Shown piece after piece: positions 2,729-30,340 of a stretch of 31,859 nt of DNA (position 1 is its first letter; every line of letters starts with the position of its first letter). Made by a program: the position numbers and the translations under genes. The DNA is from a virus (Duplodnaviria > Caudoviricetes): positions 1 through 31,859 of IMG/VR virus record IMGVR_UViG_3300017774_005006, one strand, 5' to 3'. Under the pieces are notes generated by a model. It made no database searches, had not been told where the DNA came from, and saw nothing but the letters and a program-made list of their open reading frames with translations.

Positions 2729-2769
2729 ATTGGCTAGCCGTTGACACAGAAAATTGACTGGCCAATAAT
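2729..2769 (+). promoter_or_regulatory. PL-like promoter with two OL-like operators
   Basis: TTGACA (2741-2746), 17 nt, AATAAT (2764-2769); operators ATTGGCTAGCCGTT (2729-2742) and ATTGACTGGCCAAT (2753-2766). Confidence 0.75.
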
Positions 2770-3407: not shown

Positions 3408-3784
3408 ACACCTGCACCCGCCACTGCGTGCAAGGCCGCTTCTGCACCTGCGCACCCGCCCCCGTGGTCATCCGCACCCGCCGCAGCCTGCTGGAGCGCA
3501 TCGGCGCTGCCGTGGAGGCCCCGTTCGTGGCCCTGGCCGCGTGGTGGGCTGCAGGCAAGGCCCGGTCTGAGCTGGCCGGCCTGGATTCCGACATCTCCGA
3601 ACTGCATGACGCCATCAGCTTTGACGAAGCCCACGTTTTCCGCCTGCACCCGCGCTACGAATCGAGCCCCGTGCTGCAGGAACGGCTGGCGCGCAACCGA
3701 AAAGAACTCAAGAACCTGACCGAGCGCCGCGCCGCACTGGCTGCGCGCTGCGGCCGAACCCTGACCCGAGTGGAAACCCAATGA
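3404..3784 (+). CDS. Hypothetical protein with Cys-rich N-terminus and coiled-coil-like C-terminus
   Basis: MNTCTRHCVQGRFCTC; ATGA overlaps at both ends. Confidence 0.7.
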   Translation: MNTCTRHCVQGRFCTCAPAPVVIRTRRSLLERIGAAVEAPFVALAAWWAAGKARSELAGLDSDISELHDAISFDEAHVFRLHPRYESSPVLQERLARNRKELKNLTERRAALAARCGRTLTRVETQ

Positions 3785-4779
3785 GCAACGCCGCACTTGC
3801 AACCATCCGCGCCGACATTGAGTCGGTGCGCCCGGCCTTTACCTCTATGGCGGGGGACTCACTGTCGTTTGAGAAAGAGGCCGGCTTCGCCACGCAAGTC
3901 CTGATGGCCAATGACTACGCCATGGGCATAGCCATGAGCAACCGTCAAAGCGTGATTGCCGCCGTCACGAACGTGGCCGCCATCGGCATCAGCCTGAACC
4001 CCGCCAAGCGCCAGGCCTATCTGGTGCCGCGAGACGGGAAGATCTGCCTCGACATCAGCTACATGGGCTTGTTGGACTTAGCGATTCAGTCCGGGTCGAT
4101 CTTGTGGGGCCAAGCCGAACTGGTGCATGCCGCCGATCGTTTTGAGCTGGCCGGCTTTGACCGCCCGCCGCTGCACAGCCGCGACCCATTCGCCCCCGAC
4201 CGTGGCGACGTGGTTGGCGGCTATGTCGTGGTCAAGACCCGCGACGGCGACTACCTGACCACCACCATGCCGATTGCCGAAATCAACGACATCCGCGACC
4301 GCTCGGCAGCGTGGAAAGCGTGGCTTAACAAGACCAAGAAGTGCCCATGGGTTACCGACCCTGGCGAGATGGCGAAGAAGACCGTCATCAAGCGCGCCTA
4401 CAAGCTGTGGCCCAAGACCGAGCGATTCGAGCGCGTAGAACAGGCCATCCACCACCTGAACACCGAAAACGGCGAAGGGCTGGAGGCCCTTGAGCAGAAC
4501 GCCGGCGCCAAGGGCTTCGGCTCGCCGCGTGACGCACTGCGCGAGGCCATGGAAGGCCTGCCGCTGGAAGAACAGACCGTCATGCATGAGCTGGGCGCCG
4601 AGGTGTCGGCCATGTGCCGTAACGCCGAAGTAGGCCCGGTCATGGCCTACGCGCATGTCCAGTCGCAGCACTTGGACAACGAGCAACACAAAGCGCTTTG
4701 GTACGTGCTGGACTCGGACGTGCGCTCGGCGCTCAAGGAGGAAGGCGCAGCGGCCAAGCTGGCAAAGGTGGCCGCATGA
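3781..4779 (+). CDS. recT: RecT-family single-strand annealing recombinase
   Basis: [16 protein letters not shown]...LDISYMGL...[23 protein letters not shown] motifs. Confidence 0.92.
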
Positions 4780-5507: not shown

Positions 5508-5851
5508 CCACCACCACCCACAAGCTGCCGCCGCTGCCCGGCTCTGACTACACGGCGTGGCTCAAGAACGGCGAGCGCTGCAACGCATTCCCGTGGAGCG
5601 CCGAAAGCCCGCTAGCGAGCGACGGGGACGGCTATTGGGCCGCAAAGGGCTTTGCTGCTGCGCCGTTGTTCACCGCCGAGCAGATGCACGCCTACGCCCG
5701 CGCCGCTCTGCCCCAGGACCAGGCAGAGGCAAAGCCTGCCGAGCCCTCCAACCCCGTGACGGTTTACACCAACCGAGGGGCCGCACCCGCAGCGCCTGCC
5801 CCTGTGCCGCTGACGGATGAGCAGATCGAAGAAGGACGCGAAACAAATTAG
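5504..5851 (+). CDS. Hypothetical modular early protein (AAPAAP linker)
   Basis: GGAGG RBS, ATGA overlap. Confidence 0.65.
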   Translation: MTTTTHKLPPLPGSDYTAWLKNGERCNAFPWSAESPLASDGDGYWAAKGFAAAPLFTAEQMHAYARAALPQDQAEAKPAEPSNPVTVYTNRGAAPAAPAPVPLTDEQIEEGRETN

Positions 5852-5861
5852 GAGAACTGAC

Positions 5862-5978
5862 ATGACTGACATGGAGACCTTCATTTTGGGGCTGGCAGCA
5901 GTGCGTGGTCTGCCTCCTTGCCGCACTGTGCGCGTTCTAGGCGCAGCCGGCCCCACCCAACTATTTAGCACCACTTAA
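5862..5978 (+). CDS. Small ORF (38 aa) or frameshifted small membrane peptide
   Basis: Strong AGGAG RBS; a +1 shift after MTDMETFILGLAAV would continue VVCLLAALCAF*. Confidence 0.35.
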   Translation: MTDMETFILGLAAVRGLPPCRTVRVLGAAGPTQLFSTT

Positions 5979-5987
5979 AGGTTGACC

Positions 5988-6497
5988 ATGAACAAAGACC
6001 TAGATACCAATGACCGCAGCTTGCTGCAAGCGCTCAGGGCCGACGCTGTGTCGCAGCTCGCTTGCCCCAGCCGCTCGCAAGCTTGGGCAGATGCCTACCG
6101 TGAGTTCCACCGCGCGGTAGACCGACTTGACGCCATGTGGGCGCGAGTAGAGATCGGACAAGCGCACATCGTCGCAGCCCACGGGCTTGGCGACCCAATC
6201 GCCGCACCCGCAGCGCCTGCCCAACGGATGACCTACGCCGGCCCCTGGTGCTGCGAAAAGGGCAAGGCCGAAGGCCGCCCGATCTGCAAAGCGTGCACGG
6301 AGATCCTCAACGCCTACGCCGCCGCACCCGCAGCGCCTGGACAACAAGAGGCAAAGTCAGTGTTAGAGCTTTTGCGCAAAGCACGCGCCGTGATACAGCC
6401 TGACTGGGAGGATGCAACAGGGGAGCCATTGGCGCAGTGGTGCACTGACGCAGATGCGGCCATCGCCGCCCCGCAGCGCCTGCCGAGCCGGCCATGA
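5988..6497 (+). CDS. Hypothetical modular protein with AAPAAP linkers and a CC...CxxC module
   Basis: ORF track; internal repeats separate unrelated segments. Confidence 0.65.
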   Translation: MNKDLDTNDRSLLQALRADAVSQLACPSRSQAWADAYREFHRAVDRLDAMWARVEIGQAHIVAAHGLGDPIAAPAAPAQRMTYAGPWCCEKGKAEGRPICKACTEILNAYAAAPAAPGQQEAKSVLELLRKARAVIQPDWEDATGEPLAQWCTDADAAIAAPQRLPSRP

Positions 6498-6838
6498 CAG
6501 GCGACCACGCTTGCAGGTTCGGCGTCTGGTGGGCGCACAAGCGCAAGACGTTCACAACCCCACGGCAGGCCGCTTGGGCCGCATGGGGCGAGGCCATGGC
6601 CGCACCCGCAGCGCCTCCCCCGCACCCTGACACCAAGGACGCGGAGCGGTATCGGTGGCTGCGCGACAACCCGCTGTGGCGTGTCACTTACCGCATCTGC
6701 CCCAACAGACCGAAGACGTTCCGCATGATTGACGACGAAGGCGACCTCTGGGGGCAGTGGTGGCCCACGCACGAACAAGCCGTAGACGCCGCCATCGCCG
6801 CCATCGCGGCCAGCAAAGGAGGCAAGCCATGCGAATGA
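6494..6838 (+). CDS. Hypothetical protein with DAERYRWLR motif (common in phage early accessory proteins)
   Basis: KDAERYRWLRD...VDAAIAA; may be the frameshifted C-terminal part of the preceding ORF. Confidence 0.7.
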   Translation: MTGDHACRFGVWWAHKRKTFTTPRQAAWAAWGEAMAAPAAPPPHPDTKDAERYRWLRDNPLWRVTYRICPNRPKTFRMIDDEGDLWGQWWPTHEQAVDAAIAAIAASKGGKPCE

Positions 6839-6846
6839 TCCACATC
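6821..6846 (+). repeat. 26-bp direct repeat, copy 1 (GGCAAGCCATGCGAATGATCCACATC)
   Basis: Identical to 8531-8556; ends exactly at the attC crossover position. Confidence 0.92.
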
Positions 6847-6934
6847 GATGGAGTTGAACCGCATGCCCCACGCTGACGCACCGAGTACCACCGAAGCCCC
6901 GCCGGGGCATGTCGGTTCGAACGAGGGGTTGGGC
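6840..6934 (-). mobile_element. attC: Integron attC site (95 bp) with non-canonical R' (G|ATGTGG)
   Basis: Minus strand: R'' GCCCAAC, 5-nt spacer CCCTC, L'' GTTCGAAC, CG-A-CATGCCCC...GGGGCATG-CG, L' GTTCAAC, 6-nt spacer TCCATC, R' GATGTGG; both extrahelical bases at canonical positions. Confidence 0.85.
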
Positions 6935-7508
6935 TTTACCGCCGAGGCCTCGCCCCGCGTGTTGGACCCGTGCAGCGGCAGCCGGATGATGTGGTTTGAC
7001 CGTGGCCACCAAGACGCGCTATTCGGCGACCGGCGCAGCGAAACGCTGACGGTGACCGACCGCAGCCACGGGCGCCAGGACGGCACGCGCACACTGACTG
7101 TGTGCCCCGACATGCTGATGGATTTCCGGGCGCTGCCCTTCGATGACTGCACGTTTCGGCTGGTGGCGTTTGACCCGCCGCACCTGGTGCGCGCTGGCCC
7201 GCGTTCGTGGCTGGCCGCGAAGTACGGCAAGCTGGGCCAGGACTGGCGCGACGACTTGCGCGCCGGCTTCAGCGAGTGCTTCCGCGTGCTGCACCCCGAC
7301 GGCGTGCTGGTGTTCAAGTGGAACGAGACGCAGGTGAAGCTGTCCGAGGTGTTGGCACTGACGCCACATGCGCCGCTGTTCGGGAACACCAGCGGCAAGA
7401 AAGCTGGCACGCACTGGCTGGTGTTCATGAAGCCCCCAGTAAAGCGCGCAATCTGCCCGCATGAAGACGCGGTGCAGGACTGGCGCCTGCATGGGAAATG
7501 AAGCCCAA
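6846..7508 (-). mobile_element. Integron gene cassette (663 bp) carrying a reverse-oriented methyltransferase gene
   Basis: Begins at G|TTGGGC of the upstream attC and ends in its own attC, whose R'' GCCCAAC is the exact complement; the single ORF fills the unit. Confidence 0.8.
6863..7501 (+). CDS. Class I SAM-dependent methyltransferase, probably an orphan amino (N6A/N4C) DNA methyltransferase
   Basis: Motif I VLDPCSGSRMMWF, catalytic-type FDPPHL, GFSECFRVL..GVLVFKWNE; the only in-frame ATGs upstream of motif I are at 6848 and 6863, both inside attC (GGAG precedes 6863). Confidence 0.85.
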   Translation: MPHADAPSTTEAPPGHVGSNEGLGFTAEASPRVLDPCSGSRMMWFDRGHQDALFGDRRSETLTVTDRSHGRQDGTRTLTVCPDMLMDFRALPFDDCTFRLVAFDPPHLVRAGPRSWLAAKYGKLGQDWRDDLRAGFSECFRVLHPDGVLVFKWNETQVKLSEVLALTPHAPLFGNTSGKKAGTHWLVFMKPPVKRAICPHEDAVQDWRLHGK

Positions 7509-7560
7509 CGTTCGTATTGAGCCGCAGCCGTAGGCTGTCGGCTCGAATACGGGGTTAGGT
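7503..7560 (-). mobile_element. attC: Integron attC site (58 bp, canonical)
   Basis: Minus strand: ACCTAAC CCCGT ATTCGAGC CG A CAGCC TAC GGCTG CG GCTCAAT ACGAAC GTTGGGC = RYYYAAC, 5 nt, 8-nt L'', 7-nt L', 6 nt, GTTRRRY. Confidence 0.9.
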
Positions 7561-7579
7561 TGCTTGGTGGAGAAACGCG

Positions 7580-8005
7580 ATGAATGAGGACGTGCAAAAA
7601 ACCTGCCGCACTTGCAAAGGCGCGAAACCCGCTACCGCCTACCGAAGGACGCGCAGCGAGTGCCAGGCATGTGAAAACCAACGGCGGCGGGCTTGGTATG
7701 CGGCGCAACCTGTGAAGCCGCACCAGACGGCGGAAGGCGCGGCCTACTACCGCGCATGGTACGAAGCCAACGCAGAAGCCGTAAAAGCGCGGGCAGTGGC
7801 CTGGACAGCGGCAAACCCGGGAAAGCGGCGGGACGTGTGCAAAAAGAACATGGCGCGACAGCGCGACAAGCTGAGCGCCGCATATGTGAGACGCATGCTT
7901 GCAGCGAGCGTGAACCTGAAGGCCAAAGACATACCGGATGCGCTGGTTGAAGCCCAGCGCGAACTACTGAAACTGAAAAGGGCGATCAATGAAAAACGTG
8001 GATGA
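7580..8005 (+). CDS. Hypothetical Zn-binding, basic protein
   Basis: CRTC...CQAC, basic helical region, GGAG RBS. Confidence 0.75.
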   Translation: MNEDVQKTCRTCKGAKPATAYRRTRSECQACENQRRRAWYAAQPVKPHQTAEGAAYYRAWYEANAEAVKARAVAWTAANPGKRRDVCKKNMARQRDKLSAAYVRRMLAASVNLKAKDIPDALVEAQRELLKLKRAINEKRG

Positions 8006-8213
8006 ACTGCGCAGCCAACTGGCCGAAGTGTTTGCCAAGCTGCGGGCTGGCGAGATGAAGCCCGGTGAGGCGGCAGAGCTTGCCAACTTGGCAGGCAAAA
8101 TGATCGGCAGCGCCAAGGTGCAGGTGGAGTATTACGCGCTGCGCAAAGAGGCGCCGACCATTGCGTTCTTGCAGGCCGAGTGCAAGACGCCACCGCCACA
8201 GGTGACGAAATGA
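7989..8213 (+). CDS. Small hypothetical helical protein coupled to the preceding gene
   Basis: Overlapping start; ATGA coupling downstream. Confidence 0.75.
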   Translation: MKNVDELRSQLAEVFAKLRAGEMKPGEAAELANLAGKMIGSAKVQVEYYALRKEAPTIAFLQAECKTPPPQVTK

Positions 8214-8548
8214 ACATCGTGGCGTGGCGCTACCGCCCGACGATGGGCGTGGACAAATTCCAGTGGCGGTTGACTGAGGTTCCGCCCTGGAAGTGGGGCA
8301 CAGACCTTGCCATTGAGCAGCAGCCGCTGTATGCCAAGAGCCCGCAGGACGGCACAAACAGCGCGGACGTGATCGCGGGCCTTGAGATGGCCTTGTCGCA
8401 GGCCGAGGCCATGATTGAGCGCCAGCAGCACGTCATGCAGCGCGCAATGGACGCATGGGACACCACGACGCACCAGAAGAACGGCGACGGGCGTTTGTGG
8501 CAGTGCATGGAAGAACTGCGCGGCGAGTGCGGCAAGCCATGCGAATGA
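8210..8548 (+). CDS. Hypothetical protein
   Basis: MNIVAWRYR...PLYA pattern typical of phage accessory ORFs; ATGA start. Confidence 0.7.
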   Translation: MNIVAWRYRPTMGVDKFQWRLTEVPPWKWGTDLAIEQQPLYAKSPQDGTNSADVIAGLEMALSQAEAMIERQQHVMQRAMDAWDTTTHQKNGDGRLWQCMEELRGECGKPCE

Positions 8549-8556
8549 TCCACATC
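8531..8556 (+). repeat. 26-bp direct repeat, copy 2
   Basis: Identical to 6821-6846; contains the start of the intact gene at 8539. Confidence 0.92.
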
Positions 8557-8841
8557 AGCCATGCCGGCCCCGAGTACCGCATCCGCTGCGGAAAGTGGAC
8601 CCGCTTTGAGGATCACCCCTACTGCGGCCCGATTTTCTTAGACCGCAAAGGCGACCCACTCAGCCAGCAGCCAAGCTCAATCGATGCTGTGTGGAGCCAC
8701 GTCAGTGCGTGGTACGCCCAAGGCAAGCAGTTCGAATCGTTGGGCGGCGAGAAGTGGGCCAAGTACAAAACAGACCGCCACAAAACGCTGAGCGAGGTTT
8801 GCGCTGCGCGGCGTGCGGCCACCCTGGAGCCAAAGCCATGA
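8539..8841 (+). CDS. Hypothetical protein (MRMIHISHAGPEY...)
   Basis: FEDHPYCGPIFLDRKGDP; coupled to neighbours. Confidence 0.7.
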   Translation: MRMIHISHAGPEYRIRCGKWTRFEDHPYCGPIFLDRKGDPLSQQPSSIDAVWSHVSAWYAQGKQFESLGGEKWAKYKTDRHKTLSEVCAARRAATLEPKP

Positions 8842-9059
8842 GCACCGCACAGCAAACAGCGGAAATGATTCAAGCCGCCGTGATGGCCGAGCGCCAGCGC
8901 TGCTACGACATCGTTCTGGAGTCGCCCTACGTGGTGAAGGGCAAGGCCACTGGCAAGGCCGTGGCGTTTGACTGTCTGGCGCGGATTCGGAGCGGCGAGA
9001 GCCCGACCGTCTTTTGCGATGGGCGCTTGATGCCCGGCGCATCGGAGGCCCAGCCATGA
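8838..9059 (+). CDS. Hypothetical protein
   Basis: GGAG RBS, ATGA overlaps. Confidence 0.65.
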   Translation: MSTAQQTAEMIQAAVMAERQRCYDIVLESPYVVKGKATGKAVAFDCLARIRSGESPTVFCDGRLMPGASEAQP

Positions 9060-9340
9060 AGCGCACGAAGTTCGGTTTCTGGCCCGGCTTCCTCGACGGC
9101 TTGTCCGCTGGCCCGCTTTGGCGCGCGGTTGCGCAGTGGCGGCAGCGCCGCGCAATGGCCGCGCTTGTGCGCAAGTCGCAGGCATCGCTCTGGTTCTCCT
9201 ATCTGGACAAAAAGGAACAGGTGGAAGAACTGCGTGAGGCCCTGACGCGAGTAATCGCTGCCCGTGAGCGCTATGGCTGGAGCCCGGAAGTGGACGAGGC
9301 CATCAACGCCGCTGCGGCCACCCTGGAGCCAAAGCCATGA
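9056..9340 (+). CDS. Hypothetical protein
   Basis: GGAGG RBS, ATGA overlaps. Confidence 0.65.
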   Translation: MKRTKFGFWPGFLDGLSAGPLWRAVAQWRQRRAMAALVRKSQASLWFSYLDKKEQVEELREALTRVIAARERYGWSPEVDEAINAAAATLEPKP

Positions 9341-9687
9341 GTCTCCCCCTCATGACCGCCGAGCAAGTCGCCGCCCAGCTCCGGCTGGGCCTGTCTACCA
9401 TCTACGGCCTTGCCCGCACCGGCGAGCTGCCCAGCGTGCGCCTGGGCGGCGCGGTGCGCTTCCACCCTGACGACCTCGCCGCCTACGTCCAATCATGCCG
9501 GTCTATTTCGACAAAACCCGCAAGCGCTGGCGCTACGAATTTGACCGCGTTGTTGACGGACGCCGACAGCGCACTACAAAAATGCTTCCGCAGGGCTGGA
9601 GCGCAACCCAAGCGCAAGCCTACGCAGCCGAGCACGACCGCAAGACCTACGCACTTGCAACTGGCGCACAAAAGCCCGAGCCCCTGA
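9337..9687 (+). CDS. xis: Excisionase (Xis, HTH_17-like)
   Basis: LMTAEQVAAQLRLGLSTIYGLARTGELPSVRLGGAVRFHPDDLAAYV; overlaps int by 193 nt. Confidence 0.85.
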   Translation: MSLPLMTAEQVAAQLRLGLSTIYGLARTGELPSVRLGGAVRFHPDDLAAYVQSCRSISTKPASAGATNLTALLTDADSALQKCFRRAGAQPKRKPTQPSTTARPTHLQLAHKSPSP

Positions 9688-10439
9688 TTTCCGAGGCCGT
9701 GCGCCTGTACGTCACAGAGCACGCGCCCACCCTCAAGAACAGCGCCAAGCTCATCGCTGACCTGGCGCTTTGCTTTGGCTGGTACGAAGGCCGCAGGCTC
9801 ACCGAGCTGCCCGAAGTCGTGCGCGAGTACGCCGCCGACAACCCCCAGCTCAAGCCCGCCACTGTGCGCCTGCGCATGGCCTACCTGCGCGCCGCGTGCC
9901 GCTGGGCGTGGAAGCGCAAGGGCCTGGGCGACCACGACCCCGCCGAGCGCGTCACGATGCCGAAGGTGCGCAACGAGCGCCACCACTACCTCACCCGCGC
10001 CCAGGTCGTGGCCCTGGCCCGCAGCATCAAGCACCGTGACGTGCGCGCCTGCGTGCTGATTGCCTTTTACTCAGGCATGCGCCAGTCCGAAATCCTGCGC
10101 GCACAGGCCACGCCCAAAGGCTGGCTGTTGGCCGACACCAAGAACGGCGAACGCCGCCTGGTGCCCATCCACCCCCGCACCGCGCACCTGGCCCGCCGCT
10201 GGCCCTGCGGCCTCAGCCGCAACACGTTGGTGCAGAGCTTCCGCCGGCACGCCGACGCCATGGGCTGGCCGCACTTGCGATTTCACGATCTGAGGCACAG
10301 CACTGCCAGCGCCCTGCTGGCGGCAGACGTTGATCTGTACACCGTGGGCGGCATCCTGGGCCACAAAAGCACGCAAAGCACGCGCCGTTACGCCCACCTG
10401 GCCAATGCCACCTTGGCGAAGGCCATCGGGGCTTTGTAG
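9495..10439 (+). CDS. int: Tyrosine recombinase phage integrase
   Basis: YSGMRQSE (R), TKNG (K), FHDLRH (HxxR), LGH, RRYAH (Y); adjacent to attP. Confidence 0.95.
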   Translation: MPVYFDKTRKRWRYEFDRVVDGRRQRTTKMLPQGWSATQAQAYAAEHDRKTYALATGAQKPEPLISEAVRLYVTEHAPTLKNSAKLIADLALCFGWYEGRRLTELPEVVREYAADNPQLKPATVRLRMAYLRAACRWAWKRKGLGDHDPAERVTMPKVRNERHHYLTRAQVVALARSIKHRDVRACVLIAFYSGMRQSEILRAQATPKGWLLADTKNGERRLVPIHPRTAHLARRWPCGLSRNTLVQSFRRHADAMGWPHLRFHDLRHSTASALLAADVDLYTVGGILGHKSTQSTRRYAHLANATLAKAIGAL

Positions 10440-10513: not shown

Positions 10514-10566
10514 TGGTGCCCAGGGTCGGACTCGAACCGACACGCCTTGCGGCGAGGGATTTTGAG
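10514..10566 (-). other. attP: attP core: 3' half of tRNA-Leu(CAA)
   Basis: Minus strand CTCAAAA TCCCT CGCCGCAAGGCG T GTCGG TTCGAGT CCGAC CCTGGGC ACCA = anticodon loop, long variable arm, T arm, acceptor 3' strand, CCA; 5' half absent. Confidence 0.9.
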
Positions 10567-18258: not shown

Positions 18259-19152
18259 TCAGACCTTGGAGTAATCGACCATCAGGAAGCCATCGGCGCT
18301 GGTGGCCACGGCGTCGGGGAACTTGCGCGCCACTTCGTGCGCCATGTGCCCGATGTGCTGCGGACCGCCCCAGAGGTAGTTGTAGCGGTACAGCGGCAAG
18401 CCGTTGTCGGCCGTGCCGATCTGGGTCACGTTGGTTTTCAGGCGGCGGTCGGATGGCATGTAGCCCGCCGTTGCGCCGGCCATCGTGGCTTGGCCCAAGC
18501 GCGAGCCGATGTTGGGGGGCGGCGTGCTGCCGCCAAGTTGGCTGAGCGTCAGGTAGTTGCCAACGCCGCTGTTGATGGCGTTGGCCGTGCCCATGTAGCC
18601 AGAGCCCCGAGCGTTGGCCGCTTGCATCCCCAGCTCGCCGCGAGCCTGGGCGTTGTTGGTGCCCATCTGCGCAATGTCACGGGTCGCCGTTTGGCCGGTC
18701 TGCGCCACGCCTGCAAGCCGGTTGTAGCGGCGGTCACGGTTGGCGTTGAAGCGGTTGTAGGCGTTCGTGTACTCGTTGCTCGCAAACTCTTGGTTGTAGC
18801 GGCTCAAGGCCTTGAGGGTGCCGCCACTGAGCAGGCCGCCACGGGCTGCAGCGCTGCCCTCAATGCCGCGCATGCCTTGATCGCGCCGGAACTGATAGCC
18901 GGGGTCTTGCTCGAAGTCGGCCGCGCCGAAGTCCTGCATGTATTCGCCATCCGGGGCGATGCCTTTGGACAGTTGGCCCAGCGCAGTAACGCCGGCCTCG
19001 CGCCACGGGGCGTAGTCCAGTCGGTTCTGCTGGAACTGCGCGTCACTCAACTCAGACGCCTGATTGGCGGCGTTGGCTTGGGTCTTTGAGGCCTTGTTGG
19101 AAGCGACGGCCCCCACAACTGCGGAACCGGCTATTGCTGCGGCAATGCACAT
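18259..19152 (-). CDS. DNA pilot/ejection protein (P22 gp7-like) with C-terminal S74-type intramolecular chaperone domain
   Basis: DYAPWREAG, DPGYQF, AAARGGLLSGGT; C-terminal SDRRLKTNV...YRYNY...GHMAHEV...VDYSKV. Confidence 0.8.
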   Translation of the reverse strand: MCIAAAIAGSAVVGAVASNKASKTQANAANQASELSDAQFQQNRLDYAPWREAGVTALGQLSKGIAPDGEYMQDFGAADFEQDPGYQFRRDQGMRGIEGSAAARGGLLSGGTLKALSRYNQEFASNEYTNAYNRFNANRDRRYNRLAGVAQTGQTATRDIAQMGTNNAQARGELGMQAANARGSGYMGTANAINSGVGNYLTLSQLGGSTPPPNIGSRLGQATMAGATAGYMPSDRRLKTNVTQIGTADNGLPLYRYNYLWGGPQHIGHMAHEVARKFPDAVATSADGFLMVDYSKV

Positions 19153-19631
19153 ATGCGTTTCTCCATGACAACGTCATCGGGGGCGTACCCGATCTTTTGC
19201 AAAATGCCGAACAGCGCGCCTTTGGGGGTCACCGGCCAGGCGACCACCACAATGCCGCGCCGCTCGAACTCTTCTTCCATGCTGGCGATGAAGCTGCGCA
19301 GGCGAGCCCTTGCGGCTGGGCGCAGGTAGAACGTGTCTACGTTCGCGCACTTGACCGGCGCGTGGTGCAAGCTCTGGTGCACCACGGCAAACGAGTAGCC
19401 CTGCGCGACCCCATCAGCGTCGCGCAGCACCCATGCAATCAGGTGGTCGTTCTGCCCAAGGAACACATACCGCCCCTTGTCCGGCTGGATCTTGAAGCCG
19501 CGTTCACCGTGAAAGGAGCAGGTGTCGTGCTTGATCTCGCTGCATTCGTCCCACGACTCTTGCCCGAGCGGCAGCAGTTCGTCGAACAGCTCAGGCGTAA
19601 GGGGTTCAATGCCAATCGTCAGAGTGCTCAT
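19131..19631 (-). CDS. GNAT-like acetyltransferase (P22 gp14 position)
   Basis: GYSFAVV...ANVDTFYLRPAAR...ILQKIGY. Confidence 0.65.
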   Translation of the reverse strand: MSTLTIGIEPLTPELFDELLPLGQESWDECSEIKHDTCSFHGERGFKIQPDKGRYVFLGQNDHLIAWVLRDADGVAQGYSFAVVHQSLHHAPVKCANVDTFYLRPAARARLRSFIASMEEEFERRGIVVVAWPVTPKGALFGILQKIGYAPDDVVMEKRICALPQQ

Positions 19632-28658: not shown

Positions 28659-29057
28659 TCAATGAGTACCTTCTTTTACAGCAGTAAATGCGGCGCGGGC
28701 ACCGGGTTTCAGTTCAAGGAAACGCGGGGTTGCGCCGGGTTGGCGGGCCATCAACAGCGGTTCGGGCTGGATGGCCTGAAAGCCGAACTCGCGCCCGTAC
28801 CAGTCGGCCAGCTCGTCGCGGCTCATGCTCACGTTGTCGCCATAGGGCTGCGGCCACAGCAACAGCACCATGCCTGCGGCGTCAGCTTCACGGCAGACCT
28901 TGTGCATCAGCGTCGTGGCGTAGCCCTTGCGCTGCTCAGCCGCAGGCACCTCCAGCGCTGCCACCTCGCGCACGCTGGCGCGCATGTGCTGCGGGATTGC
29001 CACGGTCTGGCGAATGCGCAGCGTGGCAGGGCCTACGCGGCGTTGTCCTGTTTCCAT
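28659..29057 (-). CDS. GNAT family acetyltransferase
   Basis: Motif A VPAAEQRKGYATTLM and WY...FGF; TGATG-coupled to terL. Confidence 0.75.
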   Translation of the reverse strand: METGQRRVGPATLRIRQTVAIPQHMRASVREVAALEVPAAEQRKGYATTLMHKVCREADAAGMVLLLWPQPYGDNVSMSRDELADWYGREFGFQAIQPEPLLMARQPGATPRFLELKPGARAAFTAVKEGTH

Positions 29058-30340
29058 CAGCCCATCCAAGCGGTTGCGTTCATGTGCCCGCCGCCCATTG
29101 CCACTTCGCGGGCAGTTGGCTTGCGGGTTGTGGTGCCGGTGAGCTTGTCAGCCACCAAGGCGAGGTATCGAAAGGCGTCAGCCCCGTGGCTGTATTCGTC
29201 ATGCCGTGGCGTTCCGGCCTCGCCCGTGCTCTTGCTCACGTTGCGGCGGTAGCGCTTCAGGCACTCAATCAGCCTGCGCACGTTGGGCGTGTCGTTGAAC
29301 CAGATGCGCGGGAACACCACGCGAGCAGCGCGAATGCCCTGCTCCACCTCAACATTCGGAGTCATCTCCGGCGCGCGGTTCAATGCGCGCAAAACCTCTT
29401 CATCGCTCTTGCCTGTCTGGTGGCGCTTGGCGAACCCGTCATGCGGCAGCCAATCGTTGCCCCAAGTCATCGGCATGGCCTGCAGCTGCGCCACGTACTC
29501 CGGCAACGGGCGGTGGCTGTCTTCGATGTAGTCGATCACCCGAAGTTCACTCGCTGCGCGCTGCACAACGATGATGGCCATGGCGTCGTTCCAGCCCAAG
29601 TCCCACACCGCATGCGTGCGCAAAAGCGGGTCGTGCGGCACGCGGCCAATGCGCTTCTGCTCTTCGGCCTGGGCGATCTCGTTGGCGTAGATTGCACCCT
29701 CCACGGCCGGCATGCACCGGCCTTCCCACTTGTGCGCGTACTCCACAGCGGGCAGCAGCACTTCGTCTTGCGCCCGCTCCTTTTCCAGCACCTCGGGGAA
29801 CCAAGGGTTGTCACGCCAGTTCATCAGCACCGAAACCGTGTCGTCACGCGGAACGATCACTGCGCGCTGGTGCGTTTCGTCCGTCTCAAGCTCTGGGTTG
29901 TAGGTCGTCCAAATCTCAGAGCCAGGGGCGCGAATGGTTGGAGTCAGGATCGACCACGAACGCTTGCTGATCGTCTGCGCCTCTTCGAGCCAAACCCGCG
30001 TGCAGCCTTCGAAGCTCTTCACGCTCTCTGCGGTCTGGTCGCTCAAGCCCTTGAACAAAAACAAGGAGCCATTGCGGCCCCGGATCTCGTCCCGCAGCAC
30101 CTCAAAGAACCCGCCAAGGCCCATTGCCTCGATCTGGTCGCTCAAGAGCCGGTGCACCGAGTCCTTGATGCTGTCCTGAATCTCACGGGCACACAGCACG
30201 CGATGCGGCGCTTGGCTGGCTTGGATCAGCAGAGCCCGAGAAACTCCCCAGCTCTTGCCGCTTCCTCGGCCACCACGGATGAACTTGTATCGACCCTGCT
30301 CAAAGAGAAACGCAAGCTTGTCGGCAAGCTCAACTTTCAT
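29057..30340 (-). CDS. terL: Terminase large subunit (PBSX-type)
   Basis: Walker A GGRGSGKS, CAREIQDSI, Walker B VWLEEAQ, nuclease WDLG and HGADAFRY. Confidence 0.95.
   Translation of the reverse strand: MKVELADKLAFLFEQGRYKFIRGGRGSGKSWGVSRALLIQASQAPHRVLCAREIQDSIKDSVHRLLSDQIEAMGLGGFFEVLRDEIRGRNGSLFLFKGLSDQTAESVKSFEGCTRVWLEEAQTISKRSWSILTPTIRAPGSEIWTTYNPELETDETHQRAVIVPRDDTVSVLMNWRDNPWFPEVLEKERAQDEVLLPAVEYAHKWEGRCMPAVEGAIYANEIAQAEEQKRIGRVPHDPLLRTHAVWDLGWNDAMAIIVVQRAASELRVIDYIEDSHRPLPEYVAQLQAMPMTWGNDWLPHDGFAKRHQTGKSDEEVLRALNRAPEMTPNVEVEQGIRAARVVFPRIWFNDTPNVRRLIECLKRYRRNVSKSTGEAGTPRHDEYSHGADAFRYLALVADKLTGTTTRKPTAREVAMGGGHMNATAWMG

Follow-up and report, generated by a model that had tools for sequence, protein, structure and literature searches.

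Two elements with the anatomy of integron attC sites lie in the early operon of a phage, which raises the question of which recombinase brought them there and whether they still move genes. Integrons are regarded as bacterial devices for the storage of resistance and anti-phage genes. We analyzed an entire viral record (31,859 bases, linear, 84% complete; this whole stretch is termed the window), which belongs to a P22-like, temperate phage. Its rightward early operon runs from a sigma-70-like promoter match (2741 to 2769, plus strand, 11/12) through a gene for a RecT-like single-strand annealing protein (3781 to 4779, plus strand) and small accessory genes to xis and int, which encode an excisionase and an ordinary phage tyrosine integrase (9337 to 10439, plus strand), and then to an attP-like copy of part of a tRNA-Leu(CAA) gene (10514 to 10566; best matches at 96 to 98%). 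Two such promoter matches were found where 1.1 were expected by chance, and the one heading the operon is a candidate that we predict to drive expression of the cassette genes. The window contained no complete tRNA and no LexA-type box, the pattern of which is CTGT-N8-ACAG. The unstranded contigs of one RNA run (X8) covered only positions 6700 to 6734 and 8119 to 8378.

We looked first at the two sites themselves. Read from 7560 to 7503 on the minus strand, attC-A (58 bp) is an intact canonical site composed of ACCTAAC, 5 nt, ATTCGAGC, 18 nt, GCTCAAT, 6 nt, and GTTGGGC. Read from 6934 to 6840 on the same strand, attC-B (95 bp) is composed of GCCCAAC, 5 nt, GTTCGAAC, 55 nt, GTTCAAC, 6 nt, and GATGTGG. 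Both have an R'' of the form RYYYAAC, a 5-nt spacer, an 8-nt L'' with an extrahelical base, a 7-nt L', and a 6-nt spacer, and 569 bp separate them. The R' core GTTRRRY is present in attC-A and absent from attC-B as integrated, being found in the attC-B homologue of a related locus (L001) and at the far end of the cassette that attC-B begins (cassette 1). An earlier note on this DNA had reported two minus-strand elements with full attC architecture. Their places and strand are confirmed; the architecture is complete in attC-A, but the R' of attC-B reads G|ATGTGG instead of G|TT.

A strict-pattern scan of the window returned attC-A and attC-B as its only two matches, and in 100 dinucleotide shuffles the loosest pattern averaged 0.59 matches and the full architecture 0. 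We then searched with a covariance model built from 32 attC sites, all from bacterial loci and chosen with our own scanner, so that the model is not fully independent of that scanner. It matched both sites on the minus strand, at 48.4 bits (E 1.4e-9) for 7503 to 7560 and 27.2 bits (E 2e-4) for 6840 to 6934, and the best of the other matches (7 in all) reached 9.5 bits. In attC-A and its homologues, a small set of 6 sites found by a pairing-based scan, 98.6% of 72 cells were paired, two-sided changes occurred in 6/12 pairs, and the covariation score was reached by 0/500 shuffles. Contigs from two other studies span attC-A unchanged, which makes an assembly artefact there unlikely; among the pieces shown, attC-B was spanned only by one from run X1, possibly the source sample.

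Could these hairpins be chance structures, or phage terminators that happen to resemble attC? attC-A folded far better than shuffled sequences (z -4.7 and -5.0) but attC-B did not (z -1.3 and -1.5), and none of the 11 weak Rfam matches in the window fell at either site, both of which would suit such a reading. The covariance-model matches, the covariation, and the cassette boundaries that fall at the core in relatives speak against it, as does a comparison of cores in 84 units, where a unit's own cores matched in 65/84, composite cores in 23/84, and the permutation maximum was 25 (10,000 permutations). Neither site was reported by a terminator scan of the window. The comparative evidence refutes this explanation, to which we give almost no weight, and we take both attC sites to be real, as judged from their sequences.

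The sites would need an integron integrase, and the integrase of this phage scored only 28.7 bits against an IntI model with a cut-off of 265. We rejected it as the attC recombinase. No other IntI match was found anywhere in the record (84% complete), so the earlier claim that the phage integrase is not an IntI and that no integron integrase is present was right. With two nearby attC sites and no integron integrase in an 84% complete record, the window is a CALIN; it has neither intI nor an attI-like site upstream of xis and is not a complete integron. Rubrivivax MAGs are the source of the named relatives of the phage integrase, which makes a host in the Burkholderiales likely. A search with this integrase returned one distant viral locus (44%), which lacks attC sites, and no close whole-phage relative. 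The 29 records of named phage genomes that match the window do so only at a methyltransferase gene.

That gene, which encodes an orphan DNA methyltransferase (6848 to 7501, plus strand; phrog_954, E 1.1e-68; DPPH motif), fills cassette 1 (6846 to 7508, 663 bp) and is antisense to the attC top strands. It had no Pfam match and no PDB sequence relative; by its family, it would likely protect phage DNA from host restriction. Both of its candidate start codons (6848 and 6863) lie within attC-B, on the opposite strand. The cores at the two ends of the cassette match, as had been claimed for a 663-bp unit with complementary ends. L001 is 90% identical to cassette 1 at the DNA level over 590 nt, and this identity starts at base 6846, the predicted crossover; ahead of the equivalent base, its flank is unrelated to the window. 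The window's copy differs by a 71-bp extra stretch (7427 to 7506, plus strand), which is bounded by a 9-bp direct repeat (7427 to 7435 and 7498 to 7506), is absent from L001, and extends the C terminus of the methyltransferase; it had no match among the loci collected, save the window's own record. In cassette-form relatives, the last conserved residues of the protein, K-P-N, coincide with the core site, the reading frame closing within the following attC or close to it. Cassette 1 is a unit with complementary cores that would move at G|TT, judging from its boundaries in relatives and its matching cores, and it departs from a canonical cassette, in which the ORF lies on the attC top strand and ends before its attC. 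In another locus (L007, 3620 to 3700), the cassette after the methyltransferase seems to have its own sigma-70-like promoter, unlike most units.

We examined 86 copies of the methyltransferase gene; attC was called beside 12, in two cases at the borderline, and beside none of the other 74. In the methyltransferase tree, which like the IntI trees below was made with quick methods and FastTree only, cassette and plain copies were interleaved, with 10 changes, at least 3 of them forced by strong branches; 48 to 58 of 500 shuffles were as low as 10 changes.

These features bear on whether ordinary bacterial cassettes were captured backwards, by top-strand recombination or by inversion of an array. 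Top-strand recombination does give insertions in the opposite orientation, according to the parts of PMC5027507 covered here, and attC-A resembles a class 1 site, matching a plasmid aacA34 locus at 78.6% over 56 nt. Yet backward capture flips the gene and its site together, and here the genes are antisense to their own sites, as read from the extrahelical base. The start codon inside attC-B and the prevalence of the methyltransferase as a non-cassette phage gene (74/86 copies without attC) also stand against this origin. It is largely refuted by the antisense genes and the start inside attC-B, and we consider it very improbable.

We then looked for an integron integrase in related phages. The complete phage record that holds L001 (G001) encodes an IntI at 412.8 bits (cut-off 265), between the cassette array and xis/int and on the same strand as the cassette genes. 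It contains 12 attC sites by the covariance model, plus the attC-B homologue; because this array runs over the ends of a linear record, it is linked to intI only if the genome is circular. Two near-identical attC sites about 1 kb apart across these ends (G001:C1, 31 to 131 and 53954 to 54054) are either a duplicated site or an assembly overlap. Searching with this IntI, we found 48 viral loci, some near-duplicates and some distant, and all of the 68 attC sites that 24 of them contain lie upstream of intI on the opposite strand. The cut-off was passed by 10/10 viral proteins tested. Compared with IntI1, the phage enzymes show 53% identity, and both the catalytic residues and the IntI-specific segment are retained. 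In 16/48 viral loci, a conserved attI-like motif stands ahead of intI. Among 24 viral contigs with this motif, intI was full in 14 (in two pieces in one of them), partial in 4, and absent in 6, one of which looks like a chance occurrence of the motif; the 4 partial and 6 absent genes indicate that loss of intI is common. One unit stands next to attI in L116 and far from attI in L100, the two copies being 94% identical. When we searched the first 10 cassette-bearing records, most of them fragments, just 1 yielded an IntI above the cut-off.

In a quick tree of 115 IntIs, 24/35 viral rows grouped together with a phage contig from a Rubrivivax MAG (SH-aLRT 94). A second tree, to which we added 37 IntIs of the host family and whose viral rows are those already grouped in the first, again placed 23 viral rows and that phage contig together (97% local support), as a sister group to the class 1-like group, with 0/37 host-family rows inside. 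These trees suggest a phage IntI clade, which is provisional because the sampling was centered on one query and the genome scan covered 17/64 parts. Outside this main clade, two lower-GC viral contigs (L140, 51% GC, and L130, 56%) carry divergent IntI-like genes with minus-strand attC sites upstream, a hint at more than one origin. In Virus Rctr41k (KX853513; L232, 4680 to 5678), a true IntI of 383 bits is annotated as xerD and sits in a co-directional operon, in which our scanner found no attC site. An ORF just past the cassette array of L014 (5846 to 6334), on the other strand and either host flank or phage cargo, encodes what we take to be a type IV pilin-like protein (N-terminal GFTLIELMIVVAIIGIL).

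Evaluation of gene orientation, called heuristically from the longest ORF of each unit, revealed 26 antisense, 3 sense, and 15 unclear units in the viral IntI loci and 13 antisense, 1 sense, and 5 unclear units in the methyltransferase loci. Bacterial IntI loci gave 0 antisense, 16 sense, and 5 unclear units, and arrays of the candidate host family (12/20 arrays) gave 5, 45, and 12, respectively. A codon-model test, which offers secondary support only since it was trained on genes of the window's phage, called 34 viral units antisense, 0 sense, and 3 neither, versus 9, 26, and 27 host units. By a heuristic count over 80 viral attC sites, a predicted start lies inside 21 (18/45 of the long ones) and a stop inside or just before 70. 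From 115 array ORFs picked, we scanned 81 on the plus strand, leaving out 3 minus-strand picks, and 28/81 matched PHROGs, including several methyltransferases. The early operon of related temperate phages ends with the cassette array, the attI-like site, intI, xis, and int, with all genes on one strand, and the attC sites of these arrays face away from intI, as in regular integrons.

We propose that the two antisense-gene cassettes of the window probably represent a piece, now stranded, of a phage-encoded integron for the shuffling of early genes. Given antisense genes and attC sites that face away from intI, the inverted cassette genes would be read from the phage early promoter and not from a cassette promoter, and with this orientation a Pc promoter driving cassettes away from intI would be unnecessary. 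Long attC loops often contain the start of the next gene, and the last codons of a gene serve as the core site, as seen in this methyltransferase family. Cargo, orientation, and the nearest cassette copy point to the phage IntIs as the builders of the cassette pool. Counted against our proposal are the lack of intI and of an attI-like site in the window, whose record is linear and 84% complete, the 3 sense units in viral loci, and the presence in the phage of RecT and several gene-boundary repeats, which means that some mosaic joints need no IntI.

The absence of intI from the window also suits the view that a host chromosomal IntI acting in trans brought the cassettes in and still moves them today. 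Of the 151 genomes of the candidate host family, that of the Rubrivivax MAG, 67 have an IntI above the cut-off (the sample includes an unpublished genome, G144, as does the one behind the tRNA-Leu matches). Moreover, IntI1 recombined 5/6 phage attC sites in the portion of PMC9892861 covered, and IntI1 to -3 insert cassettes at GWT sites in that of bioRxiv 2022.09.11.507474. Against a host enzyme stand the phage-type cargo, with no protein match between 87 viral and 100 bacterial cassette units (a small sample), the mostly sense orientation of host arrays, and the fact that the closest copy of cassette 1 lies in a phage with its own IntI, whereas the host is only a candidate. Given the phage IntI clade, the system can be explained without a host enzyme, although such an enzyme could still serve the window's phage, even if phage IntIs built the pool. 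On balance, we regard the host enzyme as a possible but rather doubtful author and mover of these cassettes. The earlier note had proposed a phage-borne cassette system that uses a host IntI in trans. Its first half, the cassette system, stands on the model matches and on the variation at the crossover; its second half is possible, and intI does occur in the host family, itself only a candidate, but it is not the best account of origin, as the phage holding L001 encodes its own IntI.

How the window came to lack a complete array is suggested by its second cassette. Cassette 2 (7509 to 8537) comprises attC-A and three ORFs: a 141-aa ORF (7580 to 8005, plus strand) with weak endonuclease-family matches (phrog_2340, E 2e-4; phrog_1035, E 7e-4) and unnamed viral proteins as Atlas neighbours, a 74-aa ORF that travels with it (7989 to 8213, plus strand), and gene Y (8210 to 8548, plus strand), the last ORF of the cassette. 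Its far core is missing here and present in relatives. In L081, cassette 2 occurs from the core onward and is preceded by a different gene. A contig of run X5 matches positions 7503 to 8223 with 17 differences (about 98% identity) beside another upstream neighbour, and a second contig of this run follows the window to 8537 and then runs into a core matching attC-A. The viral contigs that share the end of gene Y (4/4, two of them being the contigs of L083 and L084) likewise continue into an attC-A-matching core and then into different DNA each. Neighbours thus switch at the predicted crossovers in L001, L081, and X5, the variation that the earlier note had proposed to look for. The cassette it described is confirmed, but it had omitted the antisense gene, the second cassette, and the damage to attC-B.

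In the window, the start of another gene, gene X (8539 to 8841, plus strand, 100 aa), stands where the far core of cassette 2 would be. Gene X, the likely insertion target, is an attC-flanked cassette gene in L260 and L261 and lacks, in the window, both attC sites that these relatives have; we found no relatives in viral contigs and 3 metagenome loci, one being the window's own record. Its 5' end is duplicated, in a 26-bp direct repeat whose left copy (6821 to 6846, plus strand) stops exactly at the attC-B crossover and whose right copy (8531 to 8556, plus strand) lies at the start of the intact gene. Microhomology is no explanation for the left joint, across which only one base is shared. The target here, G|AT (6846 to 6844, minus strand), fits the GWT attG consensus, and positions 6 to 9 (GATC) agree with the CRGM hotspot motif in 2/4 bases, so that the hotspot motif is not matched. 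Runs X4 and X6, from two studies, each contain a contig that joins 6821 to 8529, so that gene X is intact there and follows the same linker. On its short side, this joint has 26 letters, below the advised 30, and the gene further upstream differs, so we regard it as modest support for an uninterrupted form of gene X; absent cover over the cassettes in X4 and X6 was not counted as evidence.

Taken together, these observations point to a probable insertion of the two-cassette block into gene X, at a G|AT secondary site, by which the core of attC-B was damaged. In the simplest reading of its history, an IntI would have recombined the two-cassette unit into this non-att site, at codon 6 of gene X. 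Recombination with an uninterrupted sibling at about 9 nt of microhomology, for which RecT is a candidate agent, would then have restored gene X and removed the far core of cassette 2. Without intI and with attC-B damaged, the block would now be mostly fixed, attC-A being still usable by the IntI of a co-resident phage or of the host. With the attC-B core damaged, it is also less likely that the 663-bp unit is actively shuffled in this genome.

One may go further and regard the sites as real but mere relics, the block moving only by RecT-type or microhomology recombination like other early modules. The R box of attC-B barely pairs as integrated (pair probability 0.00 to 0.03 versus 0.96 to 0.99 in a modelled excised circle), the far core of cassette 2 is gone, gene X lacks both sites of its relatives, and boundary repeats of 26 and 29 bp are nearby. 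However, attC-A is intact, at 48.4 bits, and the occurrence of cassette 2 at about 98% identity beside other neighbours in X5 suggests recent movement at the core. This alternative describes the present state and not the origin and in part overlaps the stranded-piece explanation; as a full account we find it somewhat unlikely.

A broader reading, offered tentatively and with clearly less confidence than the stranded-piece explanation, is that temperate phages operate an integron of their own to shuffle early genes and build new cassettes from their own genes. IntI would place units with an attC at gene ends, at GTT or GWT sites, the attC loop would supply the start of the next gene, and the methyltransferase would flip repeatedly between plain and cassette forms, consistent with its 12 cassette and 74 plain copies being interleaved. 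If this held, a route to the unsolved origin of gene cassettes would become visible, with the window caught mid-process; the birth of cassettes can be tested on genes that exist in both a plain phage form and a cassette form. If the phage IntI clade is true, phages would vary their early genes with integron machinery, including methyltransferases that may counter restriction, and site-specific recombination would add to the usual explanations of phage mosaicism. A natural attC that doubles as coding sequence shows the site's tolerance of overlap, and the window, a degraded example, is valuable for its clear footprint of an off-target insertion and repair.

Phage attC clusters with methyltransferases are known. 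The parts of Qi et al. 2023 (PMC9892861) covered here describe 17 CALINs in 10,705 phages and five methyltransferase cassettes, and complete phage integrons that consist of parts of Vibrio, Shewanella, and class 1 integrons. The window resembles those CALINs in having attC sites without intI and an orphan DNA methyltransferase as cargo, and a P22-like phage among their records, MW202573, encodes a methyltransferase from the same family that ends in MKPNV. In contrast to the window, the covered text has no antisense genes, no starts inside attC, and no phage IntI clade. Our orientation scan of their records found MW202573 inverted, on which that text does not remark, and the TJE1 array sense-oriented; the scanner gave no clear attC site in P12002L or in Rctr41k, and PH101 was left out.

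With regular integrons (class 1 and chromosomal ones of Betaproteobacteria), the phage arrays share the attC anatomy, the G|TT crossover, and sites that face away from intI. They differ in that the cassette genes are antisense, co-directional with intI, xis, and int, with coding sequence overlapping the sites, and the window itself differs by lacking intI and attI. Correct cassette orientation serves the Pc promoter in regular integrons (PMC5027507, in the parts covered). The phage arrays share a common direction of transcription with integrons whose intI is co-directional with the cassette genes, but phage intI and attC lie on opposite strands, which is the regular geometry, with the genes flipped and intI downstream. 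As in attC x attG insertion and SALINs (bioRxiv 10.1101/2022.09.11.507474, in the portion covered), the crossover in the window lies at GWT within a gene, away from att; unlike those cases, it concerns a phage genome, two cassettes, a CRGM match of 2/4, and a target gene that was likely repaired afterwards. The inverted phage layout is not described in the covered portions of PMC11023631, PMC8618304, and three bioRxiv preprints. In a search with most subscription papers and bioRxiv supplements outside its scope, neither a phage IntI clade with antisense cassettes nor an inverted, IntI-bearing phage integron turned up. Judged by its sequence, the window would act as an integron array does, but reoriented to suit a phage operon; it is neither a canonical cassette array nor a complete integron.

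Several further features of the record were noted. Consecutive early genes (5768 to 6620) contain 4 to 5 copies of a GCCGCACCCGCAGCGCC-type repeat, an Ala/Pro-rich linker, and contigs of runs X1 to X3 bridge some copies, suggesting module exchange. The gene-end linker at 6796 to 6823, which has a ribosome-binding site, is common to several phage variants from different runs, where it precedes different genes. Two different genes have an exact 29-bp repeat at their ends (8814 to 8842 and 9313 to 9341), the copies being spaced by 499 bp, and other contigs diverge at 8843. In the late region, two ORFs (19131 to 19631 and 28659 to 29069) have weak matches to acetyltransferases.
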